DNA of 64,000 bases from Minisyncoccota bacterium (GCA_036517215.1 DATDXF010000016.1:3175-67174), one strand, 5' to 3'. Shown: positions 3,436 through 57,213, numbered from the stretch's first letter. Translations and numbers: made by a program. The notes: generated from the letters alone by a model not told the origin.

Positions 3436-4563
3436 TTACTGCAACTTTCTGAGTGCCAAGCCGAGTGCCACGGCAAATTCCGGACCCATGTTGGTAAGTA
3501 CCTTATTTAAAAACGCCGGAGCCTCAACTTTTGAAAAGGGATGCCCTATTTCTATTTCCGCTTTAAAATTATTTGTGGCGACTTCGGGAAGTCCCTTTAG
3601 AAGCGAGCCGCCTCCGGTAAATATTACCTTACTGATGGTGCGACCATGCTTCTTCTCGTACCCCAAGAGCACGTTATTTGTTTCGGAAAAAATATAATCG
3701 ACATGCACCCTGATGATATCTGCCAAATTTTTATCCGCGGGATTCCCGAAAAGACCGAACTCTTTTTTCATCTTCTCCGCATCTGTGAACGGAATACTTA
3801 AGGATTTGGAAATAGAGTTTGTGATATCCGCTCCTCCGCGCTCTACCGTGTGGTAATTTTTCACCATCCCGAATTCTACTATCGTCAGCTTGGTCCGCGA
3901 AGCACCGAAGTCGATCAAGAGCACAGGGGAAAGCTCGTGCTCAAAATTAGCGCGAATGGAAGAAAAAACTTCAATTTCAAAAAAGGACGCGGAGAGACCG
4001 CAGCCGGATACAATGGAACGGTATTTTGCAACCGCATCGTTCTGCGTGGCAACCACCAGGACATTTACTTTTTCTGCCACACCCGGAGAAGCTTCGGCGC
4101 TGTTCATGTCTTCAAAGGAAGATTCTTTTTTGGGCAATATGAAATAATCTATGGAAACTTCGTTGACCGGAAGCGGTATGTATTTGCGCGCCTCAGTAGG
4201 GACTACGGAATCTATCTCGGCCACGGTTACCTGCGCAGGAAGCTCAATCGTAAAAATCAGGCTTGACTGCACAGGAATGGAAAGAGCGGGAGAACTCGCT
4301 GTCGCGCCGGACTGTTTTAGAATTTCCTTCAAAGCCAAAATAATTTTTTCAACCGGCGGATTTGTAACCCGTCCGGCTTCCATTTCGTTATAGGGCCCCA
4401 AGGCAATGGAGCCGTATGTTTCAAGGACCGCTTTACTGCCCTTCTTTTTTATCTCAACGATTTTAATCGCGGAAGACCCTATATCAATGCCGATAGCTGT
4501 GCTTTCCCCTCCGCGACCCACAGAGCCGAAGCCGGAAAAAAGATTTTTCAATAGATTGCTCAT
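3436..4563 (-). CDS. pilM: Type IV pilus assembly protein PilM (actin-like ATPase fold)
   Basis: 375 aa; IGIDIGSSAIKIVEI N-terminal motif and overall actin/FtsA-like pattern typical of PilM; first gene of operon. Confidence 0.8.
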   Translation of the reverse strand: MSNLLKNLFSGFGSVGRGGESTAIGIDIGSSAIKIVEIKKKGSKAVLETYGSIALGPYNEMEAGRVTNPPVEKIILALKEILKQSGATASSPALSIPVQSSLIFTIELPAQVTVAEIDSVVPTEARKYIPLPVNEVSIDYFILPKKESSFEDMNSAEASPGVAEKVNVLVVATQNDAVAKYRSIVSGCGLSASFFEIEVFSSIRANFEHELSPVLLIDFGASRTKLTIVEFGMVKNYHTVERGGADITNSISKSLSIPFTDAEKMKKEFGLFGNPADKNLADIIRVHVDYIFSETNNVLLGYEKKHGRTISKVIFTGGGSLLKGLPEVATNNFKAEIEIGHPFSKVEAPAFLNKVLTNMGPEFAVALGLALRKLQ

Positions 4564-4618
4564 CCCATATGAAATTAATTAATAAAGATTCGCTGTAATC
4601 CGTTATTCCCGCAAATTT

Positions 4619-4683
4619 CGTACGGGACACGTTTTTATTATGCTAAAATACCCTACAAGTATAGCATATACCTGTCCCGTTAG
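4619..4683. promoter_or_regulatory. Nested palindrome in divergent pilM/comF promoter region (CGTACGGGACACG ... TATGCTA-N16-TAGCATA ... CCTGTCCCGTTAG)
   Basis: Outer arms ACGGGACA / TGTCCCGT are reverse complements, inner TATGCTA/TAGCATA palindrome; same 9-mer arms recur in the rpmI and rpsZ leaders. Confidence 0.4.
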
Positions 4684-4739
4684 AAATACTCTATGATTAC
4701 AATAAACCACGAAATATTATCAATAAAATTTCTAATGGG

Positions 4740-5402
4740 ATGAGTTTTTTAGACACCATACTTGAGATAATTTTCCCGACAAAATGCGTATTTTGCGGCA
4801 AAAACGGGGACGACCTATGCCTTGAGTGCCTAAGCGGTGCGCCAGCGGCAGAGCGAGAAAGCGCAAAGTGGATATACCCAGTGTATGATTACCGTCATCC
4901 GGCCATTAAAAAATCACTATGGCTACTAAAGTATAAGGGCAAAAAAAGACTTGCCGGTGTTTTTGCGGAAACTCTTTATGAAAAAATTATAGAAGAGTTG
5001 TCCGAATTGTCGGTAATGGAAAATTTCAATCAGCCGATACTGGTTCCCATCCCTCTTGCCTCCGCGAGATACCGGGAAAGGGGGTTCAATCAGTCGGAAT
5101 TGATTTGCAAAGAGCTGATAAAAATAAATGGCGAGCGCCAGTCGGGCATAGAGTTAAAATTGGGGAATAATATCTTAACCAAGACTAAAGACACGGTACA
5201 CCAGGCTCGCATCAAGAACCGGATTGCCCGGCTTAAAAATATTGCCGGAAGTTTCGAGGTAAATAATCCGCTAGCGGTAAAAAGAAAAAACATAATTCTT
5301 ATAGACGATATCTTGACTACCGGAGCCACCCTCACGGAAGCGCGAAAAGTGCTGAAACGCTCCGGGGCGCGAAAAATAATAGCATTCACTTTGGCGCATT
5401 AG
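4740..5402 (+). CDS. comFC: ComF family protein (phosphoribosyltransferase-domain competence protein)
   Basis: N-terminal double CxxC zinc finger (CVFCGKNGDDLCLECL), C-terminal PRTase motif ILIDDILTTGATL. Confidence 0.8.
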   Translation: MSFLDTILEIIFPTKCVFCGKNGDDLCLECLSGAPAAERESAKWIYPVYDYRHPAIKKSLWLLKYKGKKRLAGVFAETLYEKIIEELSELSVMENFNQPILVPIPLASARYRERGFNQSELICKELIKINGERQSGIELKLGNNILTKTKDTVHQARIKNRIARLKNIAGSFEVNNPLAVKRKNIILIDDILTTGATLTEARKVLKRSGARKIIAFTLAH

Positions 5403-34134: not shown

Positions 34135-34419
34135 TTACTCGCCGTCAGTTCTGGAAAGCTTTGTTGGTATGCCCTTTCTGTATAAATCTACCAGTTTTTC
34201 TTTTTTATCCCTGCGCCATTTTTTAATTTGAATTTCCCTTGAACGAGCTTCTTTTAGAGAATTTTGATTTTCGAGAAAAACTATTTCAAACTTGTCACGA
34301 TTCTTAGTGAAACCTGCGCCCTGATTAGTATTATGTTCTTTTAATCTTCTTTGTGGGTTATCTGTAACACCTATGTATAAATTCCCATATGAATTTTTTA
34401 TCATATATACGAAATACAT
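34135..34419 (-). CDS. GIY-YIG nuclease-family small protein (UPF0213/YhbQ-like), second copy
   Basis: 94 aa; MYFVYMIKNSYGNLYIGVTDNPQRRLKEHN. Confidence 0.7.
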   Translation of the reverse strand: MYFVYMIKNSYGNLYIGVTDNPQRRLKEHNTNQGAGFTKNRDKFEIVFLENQNSLKEARSREIQIKKWRRDKKEKLVDLYRKGIPTKLSRTDGE

Positions 34420-34565
34420 AATTTAATTATATGCCCGTTCGACATGCCCTTCAACTTCGTTCAGGGCAAGCTCAGGGCACTCGCCTCAAAATACCCTTAG
34501 AGTTCCTTGGGTGTTTTTGCTGTGGCTTGCCACGAGCGAATTTTGTCACTACAAAATGAGTCGAG

Positions 34566-34963
34566 TGGAGATGACGGGAATCGAACCCGTGTGCAAAAGG
34601 TTTTTGCAAAGAAGTCTACATGCTTAGCGAGCTTTTTTGTTTAGATTAAAAAATTCTTAAGCGGGCCAAATATTTTTTAACCGAGTTCTAAGTTTTCGAA
34701 AAATGTTCGAACGGGCATTTCCTTATCCCGATAATATTACACCTCTACTCATATATCGGAAGTCTATGAGAGAGACGCCGGCACTCGCTTACGCGAAAGC
34801 TGGAACGAAAGCAAAGTCCTTCATACCGAAGTAATCAGAAACAATTGCTTTAGTTTTGGTAGTCAATTTTGCAATTAACATTTGAACGAATTTTCACGAG
34901 ATTACGTTCATGCTCGACATGCATCAATAGCAAAGCGACCTTCTGTCTATGCCTTGCATCCCC
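34566..34963 (-). ncRNA. ssrA: tmRNA (transfer-messenger RNA)
   Basis: 5' GGGGAUG pairs 7/7 with 3' CAUCUCC-A including G3:U70 alanine identity pair; T-arm ACGGG-UUCGAUU-CCCGU; in-frame GCA resume codon at nt 92 then 27 sense codons ending GCU-UUC-GCG-UAA (..PAFA); smpB immediately upstream on same strand. Confidence 0.8.
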
Positions 34964-35045: not shown

Positions 35046-35492
35046 TCAACGTTCCTTGAAATCTCTCCGTAGCTCGCGGTCAGTTTCGCGTTTTTTGATG
35101 GTTTCCCGTTTATCGAATTTTTTCTTGCCTTTAACGAGAGCGATCGCTACTTTGATCTTCCTGTTTTTATTATACACCGAAATTGGCACAATTGTCAAAC
35201 TCTTATTCTTTTCGCTTCCCGCCAGCTCCGCAATCTCTTTTTTTGTGAGCAATATCTTCCGGTTGCGGAGCGGGTCGTAGTCTTTCGGAGCGTTTTTAGG
35301 CTGAAACGGTGGTATATTAGCATTGATTAAAAACGCCTCCCCGCCTCTTATTATGACGAAAGCCCCCTCCAGGGACATGTGTCCTCCCCTGACGGACTTT
35401 ACCTCCGTGCCAAAAAGCTCAATACCACTTTCGTATTTTTCCACGGTTTCGTAGTTAAAGCGGGCTTTTCTATTTTCCGCATAATTCGCCAT
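35046..35492 (-). CDS. smpB: SsrA-binding protein SmpB
   Basis: 148 aa; KARFNYET..E.YE.GIEL.GTEVKS.R SmpB signature. Confidence 0.85.
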   Translation of the reverse strand: MANYAENRKARFNYETVEKYESGIELFGTEVKSVRGGHMSLEGAFVIIRGGEAFLINANIPPFQPKNAPKDYDPLRNRKILLTKKEIAELAGSEKNKSLTIVPISVYNKNRKIKVAIALVKGKKKFDKRETIKKRETDRELRRDFKER

Positions 35493-36680: not shown

Positions 36681-37184
36681 TTGCGTGAACGAATAAACAA
36701 CCAAATACGGGCGAAGGAGGTTAGGGTTTTAGATAGTGAAAATAAAAATCTCGGTGTTTTAAGCATAAGAGATGCTCTGGAACTCGCACAGAGTAAGGAT
36801 TTGGATTTAATCGAAATATCCCCTAACAGCAACCCTCCGATCGCCAAGATAATGGATTTCGGAAAGTACCAGTACGAAGCCGCAAAGAAACTTAAAAAAG
36901 CCAAGGCCGGCTCCAATAAAACGGAAACGAAATCAATTCAGATAAAGATAGGCACCGGAGACCACGACCTGGAATTAAAAGCGAAAACTGCATCCAAGTG
37001 GATAAAGGAAGGGCACAGGATAAAAGTTGAACTTTTCTTGGCCGGCAGGGCGAAGTATATGGATGAAAAGTTTTTACGGGAAAGGTTGGATAGAGTTTTG
37101 CATTTGATTACCGAAAACTATAAAGTATCAGATACATATAAAAAAGGTCCGAAAGGTTTAACCATAACAATAGAGAAAAAATAA
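36681..37184 (+). CDS. infC: Translation initiation factor IF-3 (non-ATG start; TTG at 36681 or unusual start upstream)
   Basis: INNQIRAKEVRVLD...LDLIEISPNSNPPIAKIMDFGKYQYE IF-3 N- and C-domains; track ORF from 36549 overlaps the upstream gene. Confidence 0.75.
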   Translation: MRERINNQIRAKEVRVLDSENKNLGVLSIRDALELAQSKDLDLIEISPNSNPPIAKIMDFGKYQYEAAKKLKKAKAGSNKTETKSIQIKIGTGDHDLELKAKTASKWIKEGHRIKVELFLAGRAKYMDEKFLRERLDRVLHLITENYKVSDTYKKGPKGLTITIEKK

Positions 37185-37187
37185 AAC

Positions 37188-37257
37188 CTGTCCCGTACTA
37201 AATTTTTGATTACGGGACATAATGATAAAGATTATTAATTAAAATTTTAGTACTGGG
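37188..37257 (+). promoter_or_regulatory. Conserved ~70-nt leader upstream of rpmI: hairpin TGTCCCGTA-N13-TACGGGACA plus pre-start segment complementary to the 5' arm
   Basis: 70/74 nt identical to the minus-strand leader of rpsZ at 55262-55335. Confidence 0.55.
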
Positions 37258-37452
37258 ATGAAAGGAATGAAAACAAATAAATCGTTTAGCAAGAGACTGA
37301 AGCTTACAAAGAGCGGAAAGATTCTTTCCCGCAAGGCTGGCTTCAACCACTTCAACGCGAAACAATCAAGGAGCTCGCAGCTTGCCGGACGCAAGGGAGT
37401 CAGCTTTACCATCAAGAACAAGCCTAAGAGCCATCTATTACCCTTCAACTAA
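37258..37452 (+). CDS. rpmI: 50S ribosomal protein L35
   Basis: 64 aa, MKGMKTNKSFSKRLKLTKSGK. Confidence 0.85.
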   Translation: MKGMKTNKSFSKRLKLTKSGKILSRKAGFNHFNAKQSRSSQLAGRKGVSFTIKNKPKSHLLPFN

Positions 37453-48154: not shown

Positions 48155-48757
48155 ATGAAAAAACTTGGGTTTAACATAGTGCTCCTCGGGATGATAGCGT
48201 CCGGCAAAGAAACCCAGGCCAATGTGCTCAAAAAGAAATATGCCCTGAAATTTGTGGAGTCCGGCGTTTTTTCACGCAAACTCCTAAAAGAAAAGAGCAA
48301 AGACGGAGACTGGGCGCGGCGCACTACAGGCAAAGGCAAGCCTTTGCCCACGGTTCTACTGCAAAATTTTTTGAAAAGGGAGATAAGCAACAAGCCTAAA
48401 AATAAAGACTTGCTTTTTCTCGGCACCCCCCGGCTAAAACCCGAAGCCCAGCTGGTAAAAAAAATCCTTGCCGAAAAAGGGCAGGATTTCCTGGCTTTCT
48501 ACATCAGCCTGCCGGACAAGGAAGTATACAAGCGCTCGTTAAAAAGAAAAGAAAGCAATGTAAAAGAAATTTACAAAGCTTTTGACACCCACAAGCTCAT
48601 TAAAACCCGCATCGCCTGGCACAAAGACCAAGTCGGCAAGAGCGTAAAATATTTTAAAAGCCTAAAAAAACTGAGAGTCATCAACGGCAACCAGCCTGTG
48701 GCGAAAGTTACTAAAGATATTTTGAAAGCTATTGAAAATTATAAACAAGAATCGTAA
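48155..48757 (+). CDS. Adenylate-kinase-family P-loop kinase (paralog)
   Basis: 200 aa; P-loop LLGMIASGKETQ. Confidence 0.55.
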   Translation: MKKLGFNIVLLGMIASGKETQANVLKKKYALKFVESGVFSRKLLKEKSKDGDWARRTTGKGKPLPTVLLQNFLKREISNKPKNKDLLFLGTPRLKPEAQLVKKILAEKGQDFLAFYISLPDKEVYKRSLKRKESNVKEIYKAFDTHKLIKTRIAWHKDQVGKSVKYFKSLKKLRVINGNQPVAKVTKDILKAIENYKQES

Positions 48758-48775
48758 TTCATTTTTGCAATTGTC

Positions 48776-48813
48776 ATGTGGTGAAATTTCGCATATGCGA
48801 AATTTCACCACAT
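48776..48813. terminator. 38-nt perfect palindrome ATGTGGTGAAATTTCGCATATGCGAAATTTCACCACAT between convergent genes
   Basis: Seen directly. Confidence 0.6.
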
Positions 48814-48826
48814 GTTTACATATCAA

Positions 48827-49357
48827 TCAAAGCCCGAAATGCGACCTTAACTTCTTATCGTCTAGAACTTTACTAATTTCTAGAATTTCTACATATTTCC
48901 TGACCCCGAAAAAGTCAGCCACAAACAACAGCTCCCCTTCGCATGGATAAGGATAAATCCAGGCACTTTTCTGAAACTGGTAAAAACCCATATCTTTCAA
49001 TTTCCACCTAAAGGCGTTGCGAGCATTTTTGAATCGAATAGGCAAATCATACATGACCAAACGCCATTTGCCGTCCCATTTCTTGGGCGTTTTAATTACG
49101 ACCTCGTCAATTAAAATGTACTGGAGCTTCTTTTCGCCTTTACCCGTAAGCTCATACTTACCATCTTCTTTCACATATCTGACGAATTTATAACGGCGAA
49201 AGCCACGGAAGATTTGTTTGGCTTCCGGGCTATTGTAAAATCCGGATGCTAAATTTTCTCCAAACGCCACTGCGCACAGCATCCTTTGCGCCAAACTGAT
49301 TCCCTCCCCGCCTATGTTTACAACTTTTTTAATTTTCACCAAATGTTCCCGTTTCAT
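48827..49357 (-). CDS. Hypothetical protein with C-terminal Cas2-like / VapD-like domain
   Basis: 176 aa; WRLVMYDLPIRFKNARNAFRWKLKDMGFYQFQKSAWIYP resembles Cas2 core (LVxYDx...R...L...G.R.Q.SV). Confidence 0.4.
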   Translation of the reverse strand: MKREHLVKIKKVVNIGGEGISLAQRMLCAVAFGENLASGFYNSPEAKQIFRGFRRYKFVRYVKEDGKYELTGKGEKKLQYILIDEVVIKTPKKWDGKWRLVMYDLPIRFKNARNAFRWKLKDMGFYQFQKSAWIYPYPCEGELLFVADFFGVRKYVEILEISKVLDDKKLRSHFGL

Positions 49358-52767: not shown

Positions 52768-53070
52768 TTACTTTAGACGTATCTTCTTGCCTTTGATTCC
52801 GAGGCGCTTGCGGATTTCTGAGAATTTTTCATCTTTACTGGCCAGTTTATCCTTTTCTATCATCAAAACTTTTTGAATAGACTTAAACTGGTATCCGCGG
52901 TTCTTTGGCAGCTTCTTAATGATATCACGAAGCTCTGGTCGGCGCTTATTTCCGGCGCGAGCCGTCTGACCTTTGCCTCCCCTGCCGGACGTCTTCGCGT
53001 GCTTGCCGCCACGTCCCACCAACCTGTCTTTTTTATTCTTATGTACTCTTTTTAGGTTATGTATTTGCAT
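52768..53070 (-). CDS. rplO: 50S ribosomal protein L15 (short form)
   Basis: 100 aa; Gly/Arg/Lys-rich GRGGKHAKTSGRGGKGQTARAG. Confidence 0.8.
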   Translation of the reverse strand: MQIHNLKRVHKNKKDRLVGRGGKHAKTSGRGGKGQTARAGNKRRPELRDIIKKLPKNRGYQFKSIQKVLMIEKDKLASKDEKFSEIRKRLGIKGKKIRLK

Positions 53071-53077
53071 TTGATTA

Positions 53078-53137
53078 GGTTCTAGGTCTTAGCTTCTAGG
53101 TTCTAGTGTTTGACTAGCCCCTAGCAACTAGAAACTA
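53078..53137. repeat. CTAG-rich ~60-nt intergenic repeat filling the rpsE-rplO spacer
   Basis: TTAGGTTCTAGGTCTTAGCTTCTAGGTTCTAG...GACTAGCCCCTAGCAACTAGAAACTAG; homologous to 34971-35042. Confidence 0.6.
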
Positions 53138-53728
53138 GTCACTTTCTTTTAATGGTACTTCTTTATTAGCGATGACAACGGTCTCCGGAGTTATTTTTGT
53201 GTATTTTGAAGAAATTTGAGACAGGGCGGCTATGACGGCTTTCGCGTTGTTCAGCTTGTTCTTACTTTTGGATAAAATCTTTCCGGTGACATCCTTCATC
53301 CCGGAGAGCTTCACGATATCGCGCACAACCGAACCGGCCACAAGTCCGCGCCCTTTGTTTGGAAACAGAACCACCTGATTCCCGGAAAATTTAGCGGAAA
53401 GTTCGTGTGGAATAGACATTGTCTTGGTCAGGTTCAAGCGAATCATGTTTTTCTTTGCATTCCGGAGAGCTTTATTGATGGCAAGCGCGGTGTCCCCGGC
53501 CTTACCCAATCCCAAGCCTACGCTTCCTTTTTTATCTCCCGCGACCAGAGCCACGGAGAAAGAGAACCGGCGGCCTCCGGCTACGACACGGGTTACCCGA
53601 CGGATATTCAATATCTTTTGGTCGAATTCTGGCTTGACCCTGTTGAAAGAAGACCTACCGCGTCCGCCGGTATTTCTTTTTTCTCTCATTCCTGTTCCTG
53701 TATTTTCTTTTGGTTTTGGTTTATCCAT
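53135..53728 (-). CDS. rpsE: 30S ribosomal protein S5
   Basis: 197 aa S5 pattern. Confidence 0.9.
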   Translation of the reverse strand: MDKPKPKENTGTGMREKRNTGGRGRSSFNRVKPEFDQKILNIRRVTRVVAGGRRFSFSVALVAGDKKGSVGLGLGKAGDTALAINKALRNAKKNMIRLNLTKTMSIPHELSAKFSGNQVVLFPNKGRGLVAGSVVRDIVKLSGMKDVTGKILSKSKNKLNNAKAVIAALSQISSKYTKITPETVVIANKEVPLKESD

Positions 53729-55078: not shown

Positions 55079-55264
55079 CTACCAGCTTGATTTACGAACA
55101 CCCGGAAGCATTCCTTCGTTTGCTAATTCCCTGAAACATATTCGGCAAATACCGAAGTCGCGCATAAAAGCATTTCCCCTGCCACAACGAAAACACCTGT
55201 TTTTCTGCCTGGTGGAAAATTTTTGTTTCTTTTTGCTTCTTGCTATAACTGATGTTTTTGCCAT
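55079..55264 (-). CDS. rpsZ: 30S ribosomal protein S14 type Z (zinc-binding)
   Basis: 61 aa; CFRCGRGNAFMRDFGICRIC. Confidence 0.9.
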   Translation of the reverse strand: MAKTSVIARSKKKQKFSTRQKNRCFRCGRGNAFMRDFGICRICFRELANEGMLPGVRKSSW

Positions 55265-55335
55265 CCCAGTACTAAAATTTTAATTAATAAACTTTGTCTT
55301 TATGCCCCGTAATCAAAAATTTAGTACGGGACAGG
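55265..55335 (-). promoter_or_regulatory. Conserved ~70-nt leader upstream of rpsZ (near-identical copy of rpmI leader)
   Basis: Minus-strand reading CCTGTCCCGTACTAAATTTTTGATTACGGGGCATAAAGACAAAGTTTATTAATTAAAATTTTAGTACTGGG-ATG; 4 mismatches vs 37188-37257. Confidence 0.55.
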
Positions 55336-55488
55336 TAAATAATAAATCGGGAGTGCTCCGCTAATATCTCACTTTTTTTCTCCGAACCTCTAATTATTAG
55401 AGCGTCGGAGGAGAAAAATGGATTAAGCGGAAACTGCTTCCCTTGTTGAGAATATTAGCAGATTAACCCTAAAGAGTCAACCTTGGAG

Positions 55489-55926
55489 CTACTTACAGTT
55501 GGGTACAGAATTCCAGCCGGCGTACCCAAGGCTTCCAACCACTATTTTGCACCAGCCGGGAACTGCATCTGTTTCGAGCTGCACAAGCATGGTATATCCT
55601 TTTGTTCTATCGGTATACCAATATCGATATCTATCACTTCTGGTGCGCGTCGGGTCTTCCGGAAGAGTTGCGATATACTTTGGCGTTAATCCGACTACTG
55701 CGTATACAAAAGAAGTAGTCGCAGAAGGGTACGTATTGTTGTCATTATAAAAGATTTCTGTTGCAGTGACGATTTGGCGCAATTCTACTAACCTTTTAGC
55801 ATCTCTAGCTTTTGCCCGCGCGGTATTTAAGCTTGCCATAACAACGCTAGCCAAAATGCCGATGATGGCAACGACTACCAAAAGTTCTATTAAGGTGAAT
55901 GCTCGGTTTGTTGATTTAATATCCAT
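55489..55926 (-). CDS. Type IV pilin (prepilin-type N-terminal cleavage/methylation domain)
   Basis: MDIKSTNRAFTLIELLVVVAIIGILASVV class III signal peptide; 145 aa. Confidence 0.8.
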   Translation of the reverse strand: MDIKSTNRAFTLIELLVVVAIIGILASVVMASLNTARAKARDAKRLVELRQIVTATEIFYNDNNTYPSATTSFVYAVVGLTPKYIATLPEDPTRTRSDRYRYWYTDRTKGYTMLVQLETDAVPGWCKIVVGSLGYAGWNSVPNCK

Positions 55927-55942
55927 TTATTATGATGGGATC

Positions 55943-56335
55943 TTAATTTATTTTATCAATTTCTAGTTCTGGCGGCGATTCGGTGCTGGGTCCGCTTTTT
56001 AAAAATATAAAAAGAGATACAACAATAGCCAGCACCACAAATCCCAAGAGCACATATTCCGCCTGCCTCTCTTCCTTGATCGCTCCACCGGACCATTTCG
56101 TAACTAATTGCACCATTTTCGGAGTAGCCGTTTCTTTATAATATTTTACCGCTCCATAACTTGGGGTTTCAAACTTCACGCCTTCCACTGCATGCTTTGG
56201 CTCAATAATATTACTTTGCTGAATGACTTTCCCGGGCTGCCCATTTGCCGAAGTATTCCCAAACTCTTCTAGCGCTTTCTTTATCTCTTCGTTTCCCTCT
56301 AGATTCAGATCGTCCATGGTAGTATTATACAACAT
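55943..56335 (-). CDS. Hypothetical protein with C-terminal TM anchor (start uncertain: ATG 56335 or 56317)
   Basis: Track start at 56350 is TTG abutting a terminator; TGtTATAAT-like -10 just upstream of ATG 56317. Confidence 0.4.
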   Translation of the reverse strand: MLYNTTMDDLNLEGNEEIKKALEEFGNTSANGQPGKVIQQSNIIEPKHAVEGVKFETPSYGAVKYYKETATPKMVQLVTKWSGGAIKEERQAEYVLLGFVVLAIVVSLFIFLKSGPSTESPPELEIDKIN

Positions 56336-56350
56336 TTTAAAATATATCAA

Positions 56351-56380
56351 AAAAACAAAAAATCCCCCGCCAGAGGCGGG
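56351..56380 (-). terminator. Rho-independent terminator (CCCGCC-TCTG-GCGGG + T-run on minus strand)
   Basis: Downstream of AbrB-like gene. Confidence 0.6.
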
Positions 56381-56413
56381 CAGGCCTCTACGGGGAACTT
56401 TGGGAGGAATTTT

Positions 56414-56596
56414 TTACTTCTTCTTTTTAGTCTTCGCGTCAATAATAGAGACACCGCGAGCAACACGCTTTACCAGAACTCTTTGCTTCTCCCGCCAGCC
56501 GAGAGAGCGCATGATTTCAGCCGGAATTACTATTGAAAAAGATTTTGCTCTGCCGACTCTTGTTATTTTTCTAATTGAATTTATTGGTCTTGCCAT
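56414..56596 (-). CDS. SpoVT/AbrB/MazE-like swapped-hairpin DNA-binding protein
   Basis: 60 aa; ITRVGRAKSFSIVIPAEIMRSLGWREKQRVLVKRV. Confidence 0.55.
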   Translation of the reverse strand: MARPINSIRKITRVGRAKSFSIVIPAEIMRSLGWREKQRVLVKRVARGVSIIDAKTKKKK

Positions 56597-56623
56597 ACTT
56601 TAACTGATGAGTTAACTCAGTAA

Positions 56624-57022
56624 TTAATTTCTTGTTTTTAATTCTATTTCCTCTTTTTGTAAATCAAATTTAACAATAAAATTTTCAAAAAATCCTTTTT
56701 GCCCGACGAGGCCATATGGCATTACTCTGCCGGCAACATCAGGCATAAAACCTACTTCAGCTTTATGCGTCCACCCTCCTACTTCAATTTCAATACTATG
56801 CAAATAGTATAAAGAGACTTTTCCTCCAACTCCAAATACCTCACGGGGTTTACCTTTAGAAATATCAAGACCGAGCGCTTCACCAACTTCTGAATGAAAA
56901 AGACAAATATCGGCCCCTGAATCAACCAGGGCCTCATAAAGAAGAGATCTGTGATTTGATTTTAATTTAATCTCTATAACAGGTCGTAGCGCTAAACCGT
57001 ATTTCTGATAGTTGAATTTCAT
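56624..57022 (-). CDS. Retropepsin-like aspartic peptidase (clan AA)
   Basis: 132 aa; LVDSGAD catalytic motif (D-S-G-A). Confidence 0.6.
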   Translation of the reverse strand: MKFNYQKYGLALRPVIEIKLKSNHRSLLYEALVDSGADICLFHSEVGEALGLDISKGKPREVFGVGGKVSLYYLHSIEIEVGGWTHKAEVGFMPDVAGRVMPYGLVGQKGFFENFIVKFDLQKEEIELKTRN

Positions 57023-57213
57023 AGAGCCCCAACATAAGCATCTAAGGTTTTTGGCATTCGGCTAAAAATAGGGGAATTATACCCTTTTTTAAAAGCTTGG
57101 TTCATGGCTTCTTTGAGAGTTTTTCCACTTCCCACCACAGTATCTCTGTCATCAGCAAGTGCTACCCAAAGACCTTTATATTTATTGAACATTTTCGTTC
57201 GATCTTTCACCAT
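57019..57213 (-). CDS. Small hypothetical protein (DUF5678-like pattern), translationally coupled to the protease
   Basis: 64 aa; KYKGLWVAL...GKTLKEAMNQAFKKGY; ATGA overlap with downstream ORF. Confidence 0.45.
   Translation of the reverse strand: MVKDRTKMFNKYKGLWVALADDRDTVVGSGKTLKEAMNQAFKKGYNSPIFSRMPKTLDAYVGAL

Follow-up and report, generated by a model that had tools for sequence, protein, structure and literature searches.

A dispersed and putatively bistable RNA element abutting start codons in Nomurabacteria and Paceibacteria

A sequence element of 75 nt occurs twice, in nearly identical form, in a 64,000-nt stretch of the genome of a Minisyncoccota bacterium (GCA_036517215.1; DATDXF010000016.1:3175-67174), referred to here as the window, where one copy ends with the start codon of rpmI (ribosomal protein L35) and the other with that of rpsZ (zinc-type ribosomal protein S14). 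The element is probably, if only just, a dispersed, bistable and cis-acting RNA module of Nomurabacteria and Paceibacteria, which forms either a 5' untranslated region (UTR) or an intercistronic spacer and gates access to the start codon of the gene behind it. Its description as an RNA module can be held with moderate confidence, and the steps by which it would gate or couple translation with lower confidence. It is not specific to ribosomal proteins. If it acts as proposed, a single RNA module controls start-codon access of many housekeeping genes (in division, secretion, replication, pili and ribosomal proteins) across a lineage of the candidate phyla radiation (CPR), whose members are uncultivated.

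The window copies and the wider family

Two near-identical leaders before rpmI and rpsZ had been reported in a first-pass annotation of the window, and both proved to be real and to differ at four positions, their limits being slightly wider than first noted (75 nt, from 37186 and 55336). Read out and aligned, the shared block (37186-37260 on the plus strand and 55336-55262 on the minus strand) is identical at 71 of 75 positions, with all four mismatches falling within element positions 32-46 and the likeness breaking off sharply on the 5' side of an invariant A and on the 3' side of the ATG. A search of the window with a 31-mer and a 29-mer taken from the element halves, allowing up to three mismatches, returned only the 37186 and 55336 sites, and no matches in 100 shuffles. 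The last three bases are the ATG of rpmI (37258) in copy 1 and of rpsZ (55264) in copy 2, both of which are confirmed by relatives as true N-termini. The N-terminus of L35, MKGMKTNKS, is also found in a relative without the element (L004), and the MKGMKT sequence is therefore older than the rpmI copy; an exact look-up of the L35 protein read from 37258 gave no match in the protein collection.

A covariance model (R1) recovers four copies of the element within the 64-kb window. These copies and their parts are listed here, the arm types and interior classes being described below.

37186-37260, plus strand: element copy 1, with type 1 arms and a class A interior (R1 97.4 bits, E = 4e-22)
37182-37184, plus strand: stop codon of infC, followed after a 1-nt gap by the element, which takes up the infC-rpmI junction through to the rpmI ATG
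37189-37197, plus strand: pivot 5' arm UGUCCCGUA (element positions 4-12), predicted to pair with 37211-37219 or with the pre-start segment
37211-37219, plus strand: proximal partner UACGGGACA, which with the pivot arm would form the short, 'AUG-open' hairpin, a helix that covaries at position 12
37236-37259, plus strand: 3' strand of the predicted long hairpin (positions 51-74), which takes in the bulged U at 37254 as well as the start codon's A and U
37258-37452, plus strand: rpmI (L35), as given by the open reading frame (ORF) listing, its ATG being the final three bases of the element
55262-55336, minus strand: element copy 2, type 1 and class A, directly before rpsZ (R1 92.9 bits)
55333-55325, 55311-55303 and 55286-55263, minus strand: 5' arm, proximal partner and 3' strand of copy 2, in that order
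55079-55264, minus strand: rpsZ (zinc-type S14), its ATG (55264-55262) being the final three bases of the element
4670-4742, plus strand: element copy 3, preceding a ComF-like gene and bearing 'type 2' arms GUUAGAAA/UUUCUAAU (R1 42 bits, E = 6e-8)
4561-4632, minus strand: element copy 4, which precedes a PilM-like gene, is divergent from copy 3 and bears variant arms GUACGAAA/UUUCAUAU

Copies 3 and 4 differ from copies 1 and 2 in the sequence of their arms and share the same fold architecture. They stand back to back (4561-4742), and the 37-nt gap that separates them holds extended -10 boxes facing both ways (TGCTAAAAT, TGCTATACT, plus CATAAT).

The family extends well beyond the window. Species-representative genomes were scanned with the pattern CCCGTACTAAA-N35-55-TTTAGTAC, which covers both arms, and their contigs yielded at least 115 loci, while a metagenome scan for non-canonical 5' arms contributed at least some 95 more hairpin-forming copies; the counts from these genome and metagenome scans are lower bounds, and the names of metagenome-assembled genomes (MAGs) are used as deposited. 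Hosts among the matches listed are Nomurabacteria, Paceibacterota or Patescibacteria MAGs, save for a few evident chance matches in other phyla, and one MAG contains at least seven loci. The frame downstream is complete within the locus in 103 of 112 cases (median 238 aa), and more than 80 gene families stand behind the element among the matches listed. Known carriers include PilC, FtsA, FtsQ, SecY, SecE, NusG, Obg, LepA, GyrB, DnaB, ClpB, HPF, DHFR, MetK, YraN, ComF and others, together with the ribosomal proteins S14, L6, L19, L28, S2, S16, S21, L5 and L15. The first-pass annotation would have taken numerous additional copies at random intergenic places as the mark of a dispersed repeat rather than a regulatory leader. 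The copies are indeed numerous, which makes the element a dispersed family, but their positions are not random, since all 223 hairpin-validated copies that were examined are oriented in sense and abut a start codon. Copies 1 and 2 each show two or three differences from copies that precede unrelated genes in other species, and four from each other. The near-identity of the rpmI and rpsZ copies is thus nothing special, and a recent duplication linking the two was ruled out, as each is nearer to copies of other species.

The consensus of the family reads tACYTGTCCCGTACTAAATTTTTGAKTA-(~25 variable nt)-TTAAAATTTTAGTACYGGGATG, for an element of about 75 nt with about 30% G+C. The motif YGGGATG is present in almost every copy, although it was not required by the scan pattern, and an A six bases before CCCG is invariant (107/107), conservation being flat upstream of it. 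The interior falls mainly into class A (...ACGGGRYATAAAGATAAAGATTATTAA...) and class B (...AAAACAATGACCACTATTATTAACAA...), and arms of types 1 and 2 occur together in single genomes, namely that of the window and those of L013, L035, L036, L062 and L084.

Comparison of orthologous sites in 29 pairs from different species gives an identity of 84% for the element and 73% for its loop and interior, against 48% for the third codon positions downstream. The element is therefore not a decaying insertion, and by this sequence comparison it is under strong purifying selection. Its occupancy of particular sites has nevertheless varied. The L20 protein of the window has hundreds of relatives at 88-95% identity which, where named, belong to Nomurabacteria, Paceibacterota, Minisyncoccia or Patescibacteria. 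Two of these (L002, with L20 92% identical, and L004, with 90%) have the same gene order, with 4 and 16 nt between the infC stop and the rpmI ATG, and a covariance-model search of their 20-kb syntenic regions found no element; the rpmI copy is therefore a recent gain, specific to the window lineage. The rpsZ gene is preceded by a type-2 copy in at least nine relatives, upstream of which lie the same promoter and approximately 110-nt leader as in the window. As the window holds a type-1, class A copy behind this same promoter and leader, the rpsZ copy has replaced an older variant of the element in place.

Two competing helices

Copies 1 and 2 both have a single long hairpin as their minimum-free-energy fold (-21.8 and -22.2 kcal/mol; z = -4.4; 0/200 shuffles as stable), in which GUCCCGUACUAAA...UUUUGAUUA is paired with UAAUUAAAA...UUUAGUAC-U-GGGAU and two bases of the start codon, its A and its U, are themselves paired. 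The stem comprises roughly 23 bp, about two helical turns, with one mismatch and one bulge, and all arm variants are predicted to fold alike. The complementarity of the pre-start segment (TTTAGTAC-T-GGGAT) to the 5' arm (GTCCCGTACTAAA) had already been recognized in the first-pass annotation and is present as described, with one T bulged. Alternatively, the 5' arm is predicted to pair with a nearby UACGGGRYA to give a short hairpin, which leaves the A/U-rich and unstructured approach to the AUG free. This local hairpin of 9 bp, likewise described before, takes the form TGTCCCGTA-N13-TACGGGACA in copy 1 and includes one G.U pair in copy 2, where the 3' arm is TACGGGGCA.

Covariation across about 200 copies backs both the start-codon-masking pairing and the local 5' hairpin, as modelled. 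Among 204 copies, the outer stem varies at position 10 (G-C, G.U), position 12 (A-U, U-A and, once, G-C), position 13 (C-G, A-U, G-C, U-A and wobbles) and position 14 (U-A, G-C, G.U, A-U), all of its other positions being invariant. For 50 distinct arm combinations, 96.4% of cells in the long helix are paired, compared to 86.2 +/- 0.9% in shuffles (0/500), a percentage that is inflated by the preselection of rows for at least 12 of 14 pairs and by removal of the bulged base, neither of which inflates the diversity of pair types. When the partners are slid, pairing falls to 38-54%. The covariation score of the long helix is 0.276 against 0.097 in shuffles (0/500), with four pairs changed on both sides. 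Two copies that apparently start with GTG (frame unchecked) carry C instead of U at position 6, by which the pair is kept, and retain the A at position 1. RNAalifold found no structure in the raw MAFFT alignment of 115 copies, owing to misalignment of the type-2 arms around the bulge, and anchored pair counting was used in its place. In one sub-lineage (L025, L043, L056, L060, L068, L096 and L107), the 5' arm bears AAAATTTT for AAATTTTT and the 3' arm AAATTTTT for AAAATTTT. The single U-U mismatch of the stem may itself be selected, since this swap shifts it by one position and does not remove it.

The short hairpin, formed by positions 4-12 with approximately positions 26-34, shows all nine pairs in 52 of 204 copies, whereas shuffling of the interior gave as many in 2 of 1020. 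Covariation of position 12 is seen with its proximal partner as well (A-U in 73 copies, U-A in 46), and the A/G and C/U variation within UACGGGRYA preserves wobble pairing with U6 and G5. G.U pairs are frequent on the sense strand only, indicating that the constraint acts on RNA rather than DNA. On the modelled pairings, compensatory change maintains both alternative helices, and the near-invariance of the 5' arm may be explained by two pairing partners that constrain the same strand.

Folding at increasing chain lengths separates the two states. At lengths of 36-68 nt, the minimum-free-energy fold of copies 1 and 2 is the short hairpin; the long one prevails only at 72 nt or more, when GGGAU has become part of the chain. 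By a direct-path estimate, a barrier of about 13-14 kcal/mol separates the two hairpins, and at equilibrium the AUG is predicted to have its A unpaired with a probability of 0.01 and its U with one of 0.07.

Copies of class B lack the short hairpin. Nearly all of them possess an open frame of 10 codons, M[TV]xI[IN][NK]NLKF*, which starts in the loop and ends with UAG 7 nt before the AUG (32 of 108 copies; e.g. L051, L104, L086 and L034). This mini-ORF is nearly confined to copies at gene junctions (27/72, against 2/32 at operon starts; p = 8e-4). Its frame stays open while the sequence of the peptide is poorly conserved, making a functional peptide unlikely. The class A interior has no conserved ORF, any ATG-initiated ORF being present in just 15 of 76 copies.

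Placement, proposed action and alternatives

Gene contexts were assigned by simple ORF rules rather than curated annotation. On these rules, the long ORF closest upstream runs in the same direction in 89 of 104 copies, mostly with its stop 0-8 nt before the element. In an enlarged set of junction copies, 87 of 99 have the first base of the upstream stop codon 1-10 nt ahead of base 1. Ordinary short junctions in the window genome and its relatives have similar spacers (median 5 nt), and because of this resemblance the element looks like 72 nt put directly 5' of the ATG.

Copies without a close co-directional upstream gene display a different arrangement. Of these operon-start copies, 15 of 36 have a TAnnnT whose end is exactly 6 nt upstream of base 1, as opposed to 2 of 71 junction copies (p = 6e-7), and an extended TGnTAnnnT occupies that place in 10 of 36 and 0 of 71, respectively. 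Several operon-start copies also have a TTGACA-like -35 box, and the -10 box is often an extended TGnTAnAAT. In an independent metagenome set, 6 nt before base 1 is the modal position of the -10 box (19/61). By established promoter geometry, a sigma-70 -10 box placed 6 nt upstream should start transcription at the first A of the element. This geometry, the operon-internal position of the remaining copies and the sense-strand G.U pairs together suggest that the element is transcribed, forming either the entire 5' UTR or a spacer between cistrons. Of the promoter/leader cassette that the first-pass annotation had offered as one possibility, the leader comes close to what was found, and the promoter does not belong to it, lying upstream of the element at operon heads.

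The organism itself appears to initiate translation without Shine-Dalgarno (SD) pairing, often on leaderless mRNAs, given that 6 of 66 window genes are preceded by an SD-like motif and 24 of 66 have a -10-like hexamer 5-9 nt upstream of the ATG, seven of these being extended. Extended -10 boxes of the form TGnTAnAAT that end 6-9 nt before the ATG are seen, for example, upstream of 5454, 10951, 12123, 15097, 36583, 40322 and 45884. At tight junctions, re-initiation presumably takes place.

The action proposed for the element begins with the nascent transcript, where the short hairpin would form first and would keep accessible the AUG and some 40 nt of single-stranded, A/U-rich sequence. As the ground state, the long hairpin would close the initiation site. 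At junction copies, when the upstream stop codon occupies the A site of a ribosome, that ribosome would, judging by the known ribosomal footprint, cover and unwind the first 8-12 nt or so of the element, which constitute the strand facing GGGAU. The AUG would thereby be freed and kept beside the terminating ribosome by the inner stem, leading to re-initiation, and with the AUG so held, downstream translation would stay coupled across 72 nt. In class B copies, the mini-ORF may open the stem in place of the short hairpin.

Several points weigh against this account. All of the structures are predictions, gating and coupling are deductions, and a stem of -22 kcal/mol on the AUG of essential genes is awkward unless it is opened. 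The short hairpin is missing in about 30-50% of copies, and its frequency does not distinguish operon-start copies (21/32) from those at junctions (37/72; p = 0.2). To the preselection of covariation rows and the simple ORF rules mentioned above may be added that, in the metagenome set, the excess of -10 boxes at operon starts relative to junction copies falls short of significance. Pairing alone does not account for arms of nearly invariant sequence, which a three-way pairing constraint, or a protein or RNase, may explain. Finally, the differences in presence and absence and the in-place replacement suggest a copying process that a leader model leaves unexplained.

A bolder proposal, possible yet on balance doubtful, is that CPR bacteria of the Nomurabacteria type, which seemingly do without SD-guided initiation, use a standardised, copy-and-paste bistable leader to time or couple initiation, with a shunt-like re-initiation across the hairpin, and that the leader is installed exactly at start codons by a copying mechanism not so far known from bacteria. 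If the main reading is right, the element would offer a handle on initiation and coupling in the lack of SD sequences and, at internal cistrons, of a free 5' end. It would also be a natural bistable RNA with hundreds of variants, suitable as a test case for co-transcriptional folding, and an annotation aid that flags genuine start codons and the layout of operons in genomes of Patescibacteria. The 72-nt cassette placed exactly at the ATG and the change from type 2 to type 1 at rpsZ pose a separate question of genome mechanics.

These same two features would suit a selfish, miniature palindromic repeat, similar to MITEs (miniature transposable elements with inverted repeats) or to REP sequences, that inserts just 5' of ATG codons and survives where its hairpin keeps the stop codon or transcription start near the AUG, with no function of its own. 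Such a repeat is considered unlikely. The ends of the element resemble inverted repeats (GUCCCGUACUAAA / UUUAGUAC(U)GGGAU), and it is small, multi-copy and highly alike across loci and species. It occupies the infC-rpmI junction of the window and is absent in relatives with 90-92% L20 identity, and its left spacer of 0-8 nt, like that of an ordinary junction, is what insertion right at the ATG would leave. A repeat with no function of its own is nonetheless difficult to reconcile with the finding that 0 of 223 hairpin-validated copies are antisense or off a start codon, or with the identity of orthologous copies (84%) relative to third codon positions (48%), and two covarying alternative helices are not required of a transposase recognition site. 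No target-site duplication was seen in the junction listing, where the left flank is merely A/T-rich, though no dedicated repeat search was run. Similarly, no transposase-bearing parent was seen, none having been searched for directly, and a scan of viral contigs with the arms returned 0 matches, a result on which a phage origin was also rejected.

The long stem could otherwise serve as a site of RNA processing or stability, being cut by RNase III or another RNase so as to separate cistrons or make short-leader mRNAs, or blocking exonucleases. RNase III processing of the Correia/NEMIS hairpins and of the phage T7 and lambda N leaders provides precedents. A stem of about two helical turns with one mismatch and one bulge would fit this role, as would its location, 4 nt from the 5' end in operon-start copies and between cistrons in the rest, and where leaderless-type initiation seems common, 5' ends near the AUG could be useful. 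A cut within the stem, however, would leave a leader of about 10 nt without SD rather than a terminal AUG, and neither the second competing hairpin and its covariation nor the class B mini-ORF would be explained. A processing or stability site is judged quite unlikely.

That the element is a promoter cassette acting as DNA, whose own TTGA... and TAAAAT would drive the downstream gene, is very improbable. A TAAAAT is conserved 12 nt before the ATG, with TTGA in the 5' half, and class B has ATGACC-N16-TAAAAT, but the spacing of these candidate boxes differs between classes A and B, and a consensus promoter scan found none inside either of window copies 1 and 2. The loop of ftsA copies likewise contains GTGATATAAT. 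The sigma-70 promoters nevertheless lie upstream, where they would start transcription at base 1 of the element, and compensatory changes and G.U pairs affect bases that a 3'-proximal start would leave untranscribed. As an observation in its own right, the ftsA copies of six species (L013, L061, L067, L080, L082 and L105) carry this sequence conserved in their loop, where it makes a perfect extended -10 box, and these particular copies may hold an internal promoter as well.

The suggestion of the first-pass annotation that rpmI and rpsZ share an autoregulatory leader bound by a ribosomal protein (L20, L35 or S14) is barely credible: both are ribosomal-protein genes and such genes recur among the carriers, but more than 80 gene families without relation to one another carry the same leader, most carriers (PilC, FtsA, FtsQ, SecY, GyrB, DnaB, DHFR, MetK, ComF and others) have no relation to ribosomal proteins, the infC-rpmI junction of relatives is devoid of it and there is no match to an Rfam ribosomal leader. 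An integron attC site, a DNA uptake sequence, a promoter for a phage-type RNA polymerase, a self-cleaving ribozyme and a tRNA-like substrate of RNase P/Z were considered and dropped, given carriers that are core genes in conserved operons, copies in the tens rather than thousands, arms that covary as RNA and the lack of a match to an Rfam ribozyme.

Known systems and other features of the window

A search of the whole window against Rfam 15 at gathering thresholds returned only tmRNA and two tRNAs, a permissive scan of 37150-37300 gave noise only (E >= 0.7), and the literature searched, with literal sequences among other terms, yielded no description of the element. The IF3-L35-L20 operon of Escherichia coli (infC-rpmI-rplT) is the textbook case of translational coupling through mRNA structure, in which upstream translation opens a helix, and window copy 1 lies in this very same operon, at infC-rpmI. 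As in that operon and in the coat-replicase region of phage MS2, the start codon is placed in a helix whose opposite strand coincides with the end of the upstream cistron or lies close to it. Each of those structures occurs once and belongs to a particular gene, whereas the element is reused before dozens of unrelated genes, can form another, competing hairpin and is found as well at the 5' ends of transcripts, with no ribosome ahead of it.

With the expression platforms of translational riboswitches and with RNA thermometers, the element shares two mutually exclusive helices, one of which hides the initiation region. Unlike riboswitches, it has no aptamer-like conserved multi-helix core, two competing hairpins make up all of it, its interior varies by class and it has no Rfam riboswitch match, and a metabolite ligand is argued against by a module that is generic across genes of unrelated function. 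The Rfam ribosomal-protein leaders, such as the L20 leader, resemble it in standing upstream of ribosomal-protein genes in the window, but it matches none of these models and is not confined to ribosomal-protein operons. Mycobacterial interspersed repetitive units (MIRU) are also repeats found in operon junctions, with small ORFs that keep coupling, for which the class B mini-ORF may be compared; they are, however, tandem direct repeats with no hairpin, their ORFs overlap both flanking genes and they are not fused to the start codon.

By its genomic behaviour the element recalls the Correia/NEMIS repeats of Neisseria, the ERIC sequences of enterobacteria and REP/BIME, all of which are short, multi-copy, intergenic, palindromic and transcribed, vary in presence among relatives and may affect the fate of mRNA. 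Small dispersed palindromic repeats co-transcribed with genes are treated in PMC3184786, PMC2229807 and PMC3733652. In the last of these, REP/BIME are defined by a G+C-rich palindrome of 20-40 nt with a terminal GTAG or CGTC tag (PMC3733652), and the element, at 75 nt and about 30% G+C, has neither tag at either end. In contrast to Correia/NEMIS, ERIC and REP/BIME, every copy is in sense and in exact register with a start codon, is strongly conserved at orthologous sites and has two covarying helices. By analogy, the element would be closest in mechanism to mRNA-structure coupling and riboswitch-type expression platforms, and in genomic behaviour to the transcribed palindromic repeats Correia/NEMIS, ERIC and REP, and also to MIRU.

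The rpsZ locus contains two further features on the same strand as copy 2.

55452-55480, minus strand: sigma-70-type promoter TTGACT-N17-(TG)CTAATAT, with TGCTAATAT after the N17 spacer, conserved in relatives and probably driving the rpsZ transcript
55337-55450, minus strand: separate, apparently rpsZ-specific structured leader between the promoter and copy 2, with 28 pairs predicted by RNAalifold from eight sequences, 15 of them with compensatory changes

This leader of approximately 110 nt consists of AACAAGGGAA..., TTAATCCATTTTTCTCC, a variable insert, AAAGAAAAAAAGTGAGATATTA and a small hairpin, is kept in at least eight relatives and has no Rfam match. It may be a true regulatory leader of the spc operon or of S14/S8. 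About 2 kb of extra genes lie between rplE and the rpsZ promoter of the window (55489-57213, minus strand), encoding a DUF5678 protein, a retropepsin-like aspartic protease, a MazE/AbrB-like protein, a 135-aa hypothetical protein and a type IV pilin-like protein; in relatives, the promoter follows directly after rplE. Within 52768-53728 (minus strand) there is no L30 gene between those of S5 and L15, and the L15 frame spans only 100 aa, against 145 aa in the relative L044.

A perfect 20-bp palindrome at 48769-48814 (GTGGTGAAATTTCGCAT/ATGCGAAATTTCACCAC) gave a weak, false match to the covariance model. It lies between the convergent genes 48155-48757 (plus strand) and 48827-49357 (minus strand) and is probably a bidirectional terminator. 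The tmRNA gene (Rfam, 133 bits) adjoins smpB in a region with features at 34563-34963, 35046-35492 and 34135-34419, all on the minus strand, and a small ORF just beside the tmRNA looks GIY-YIG-like by its sequence alone.

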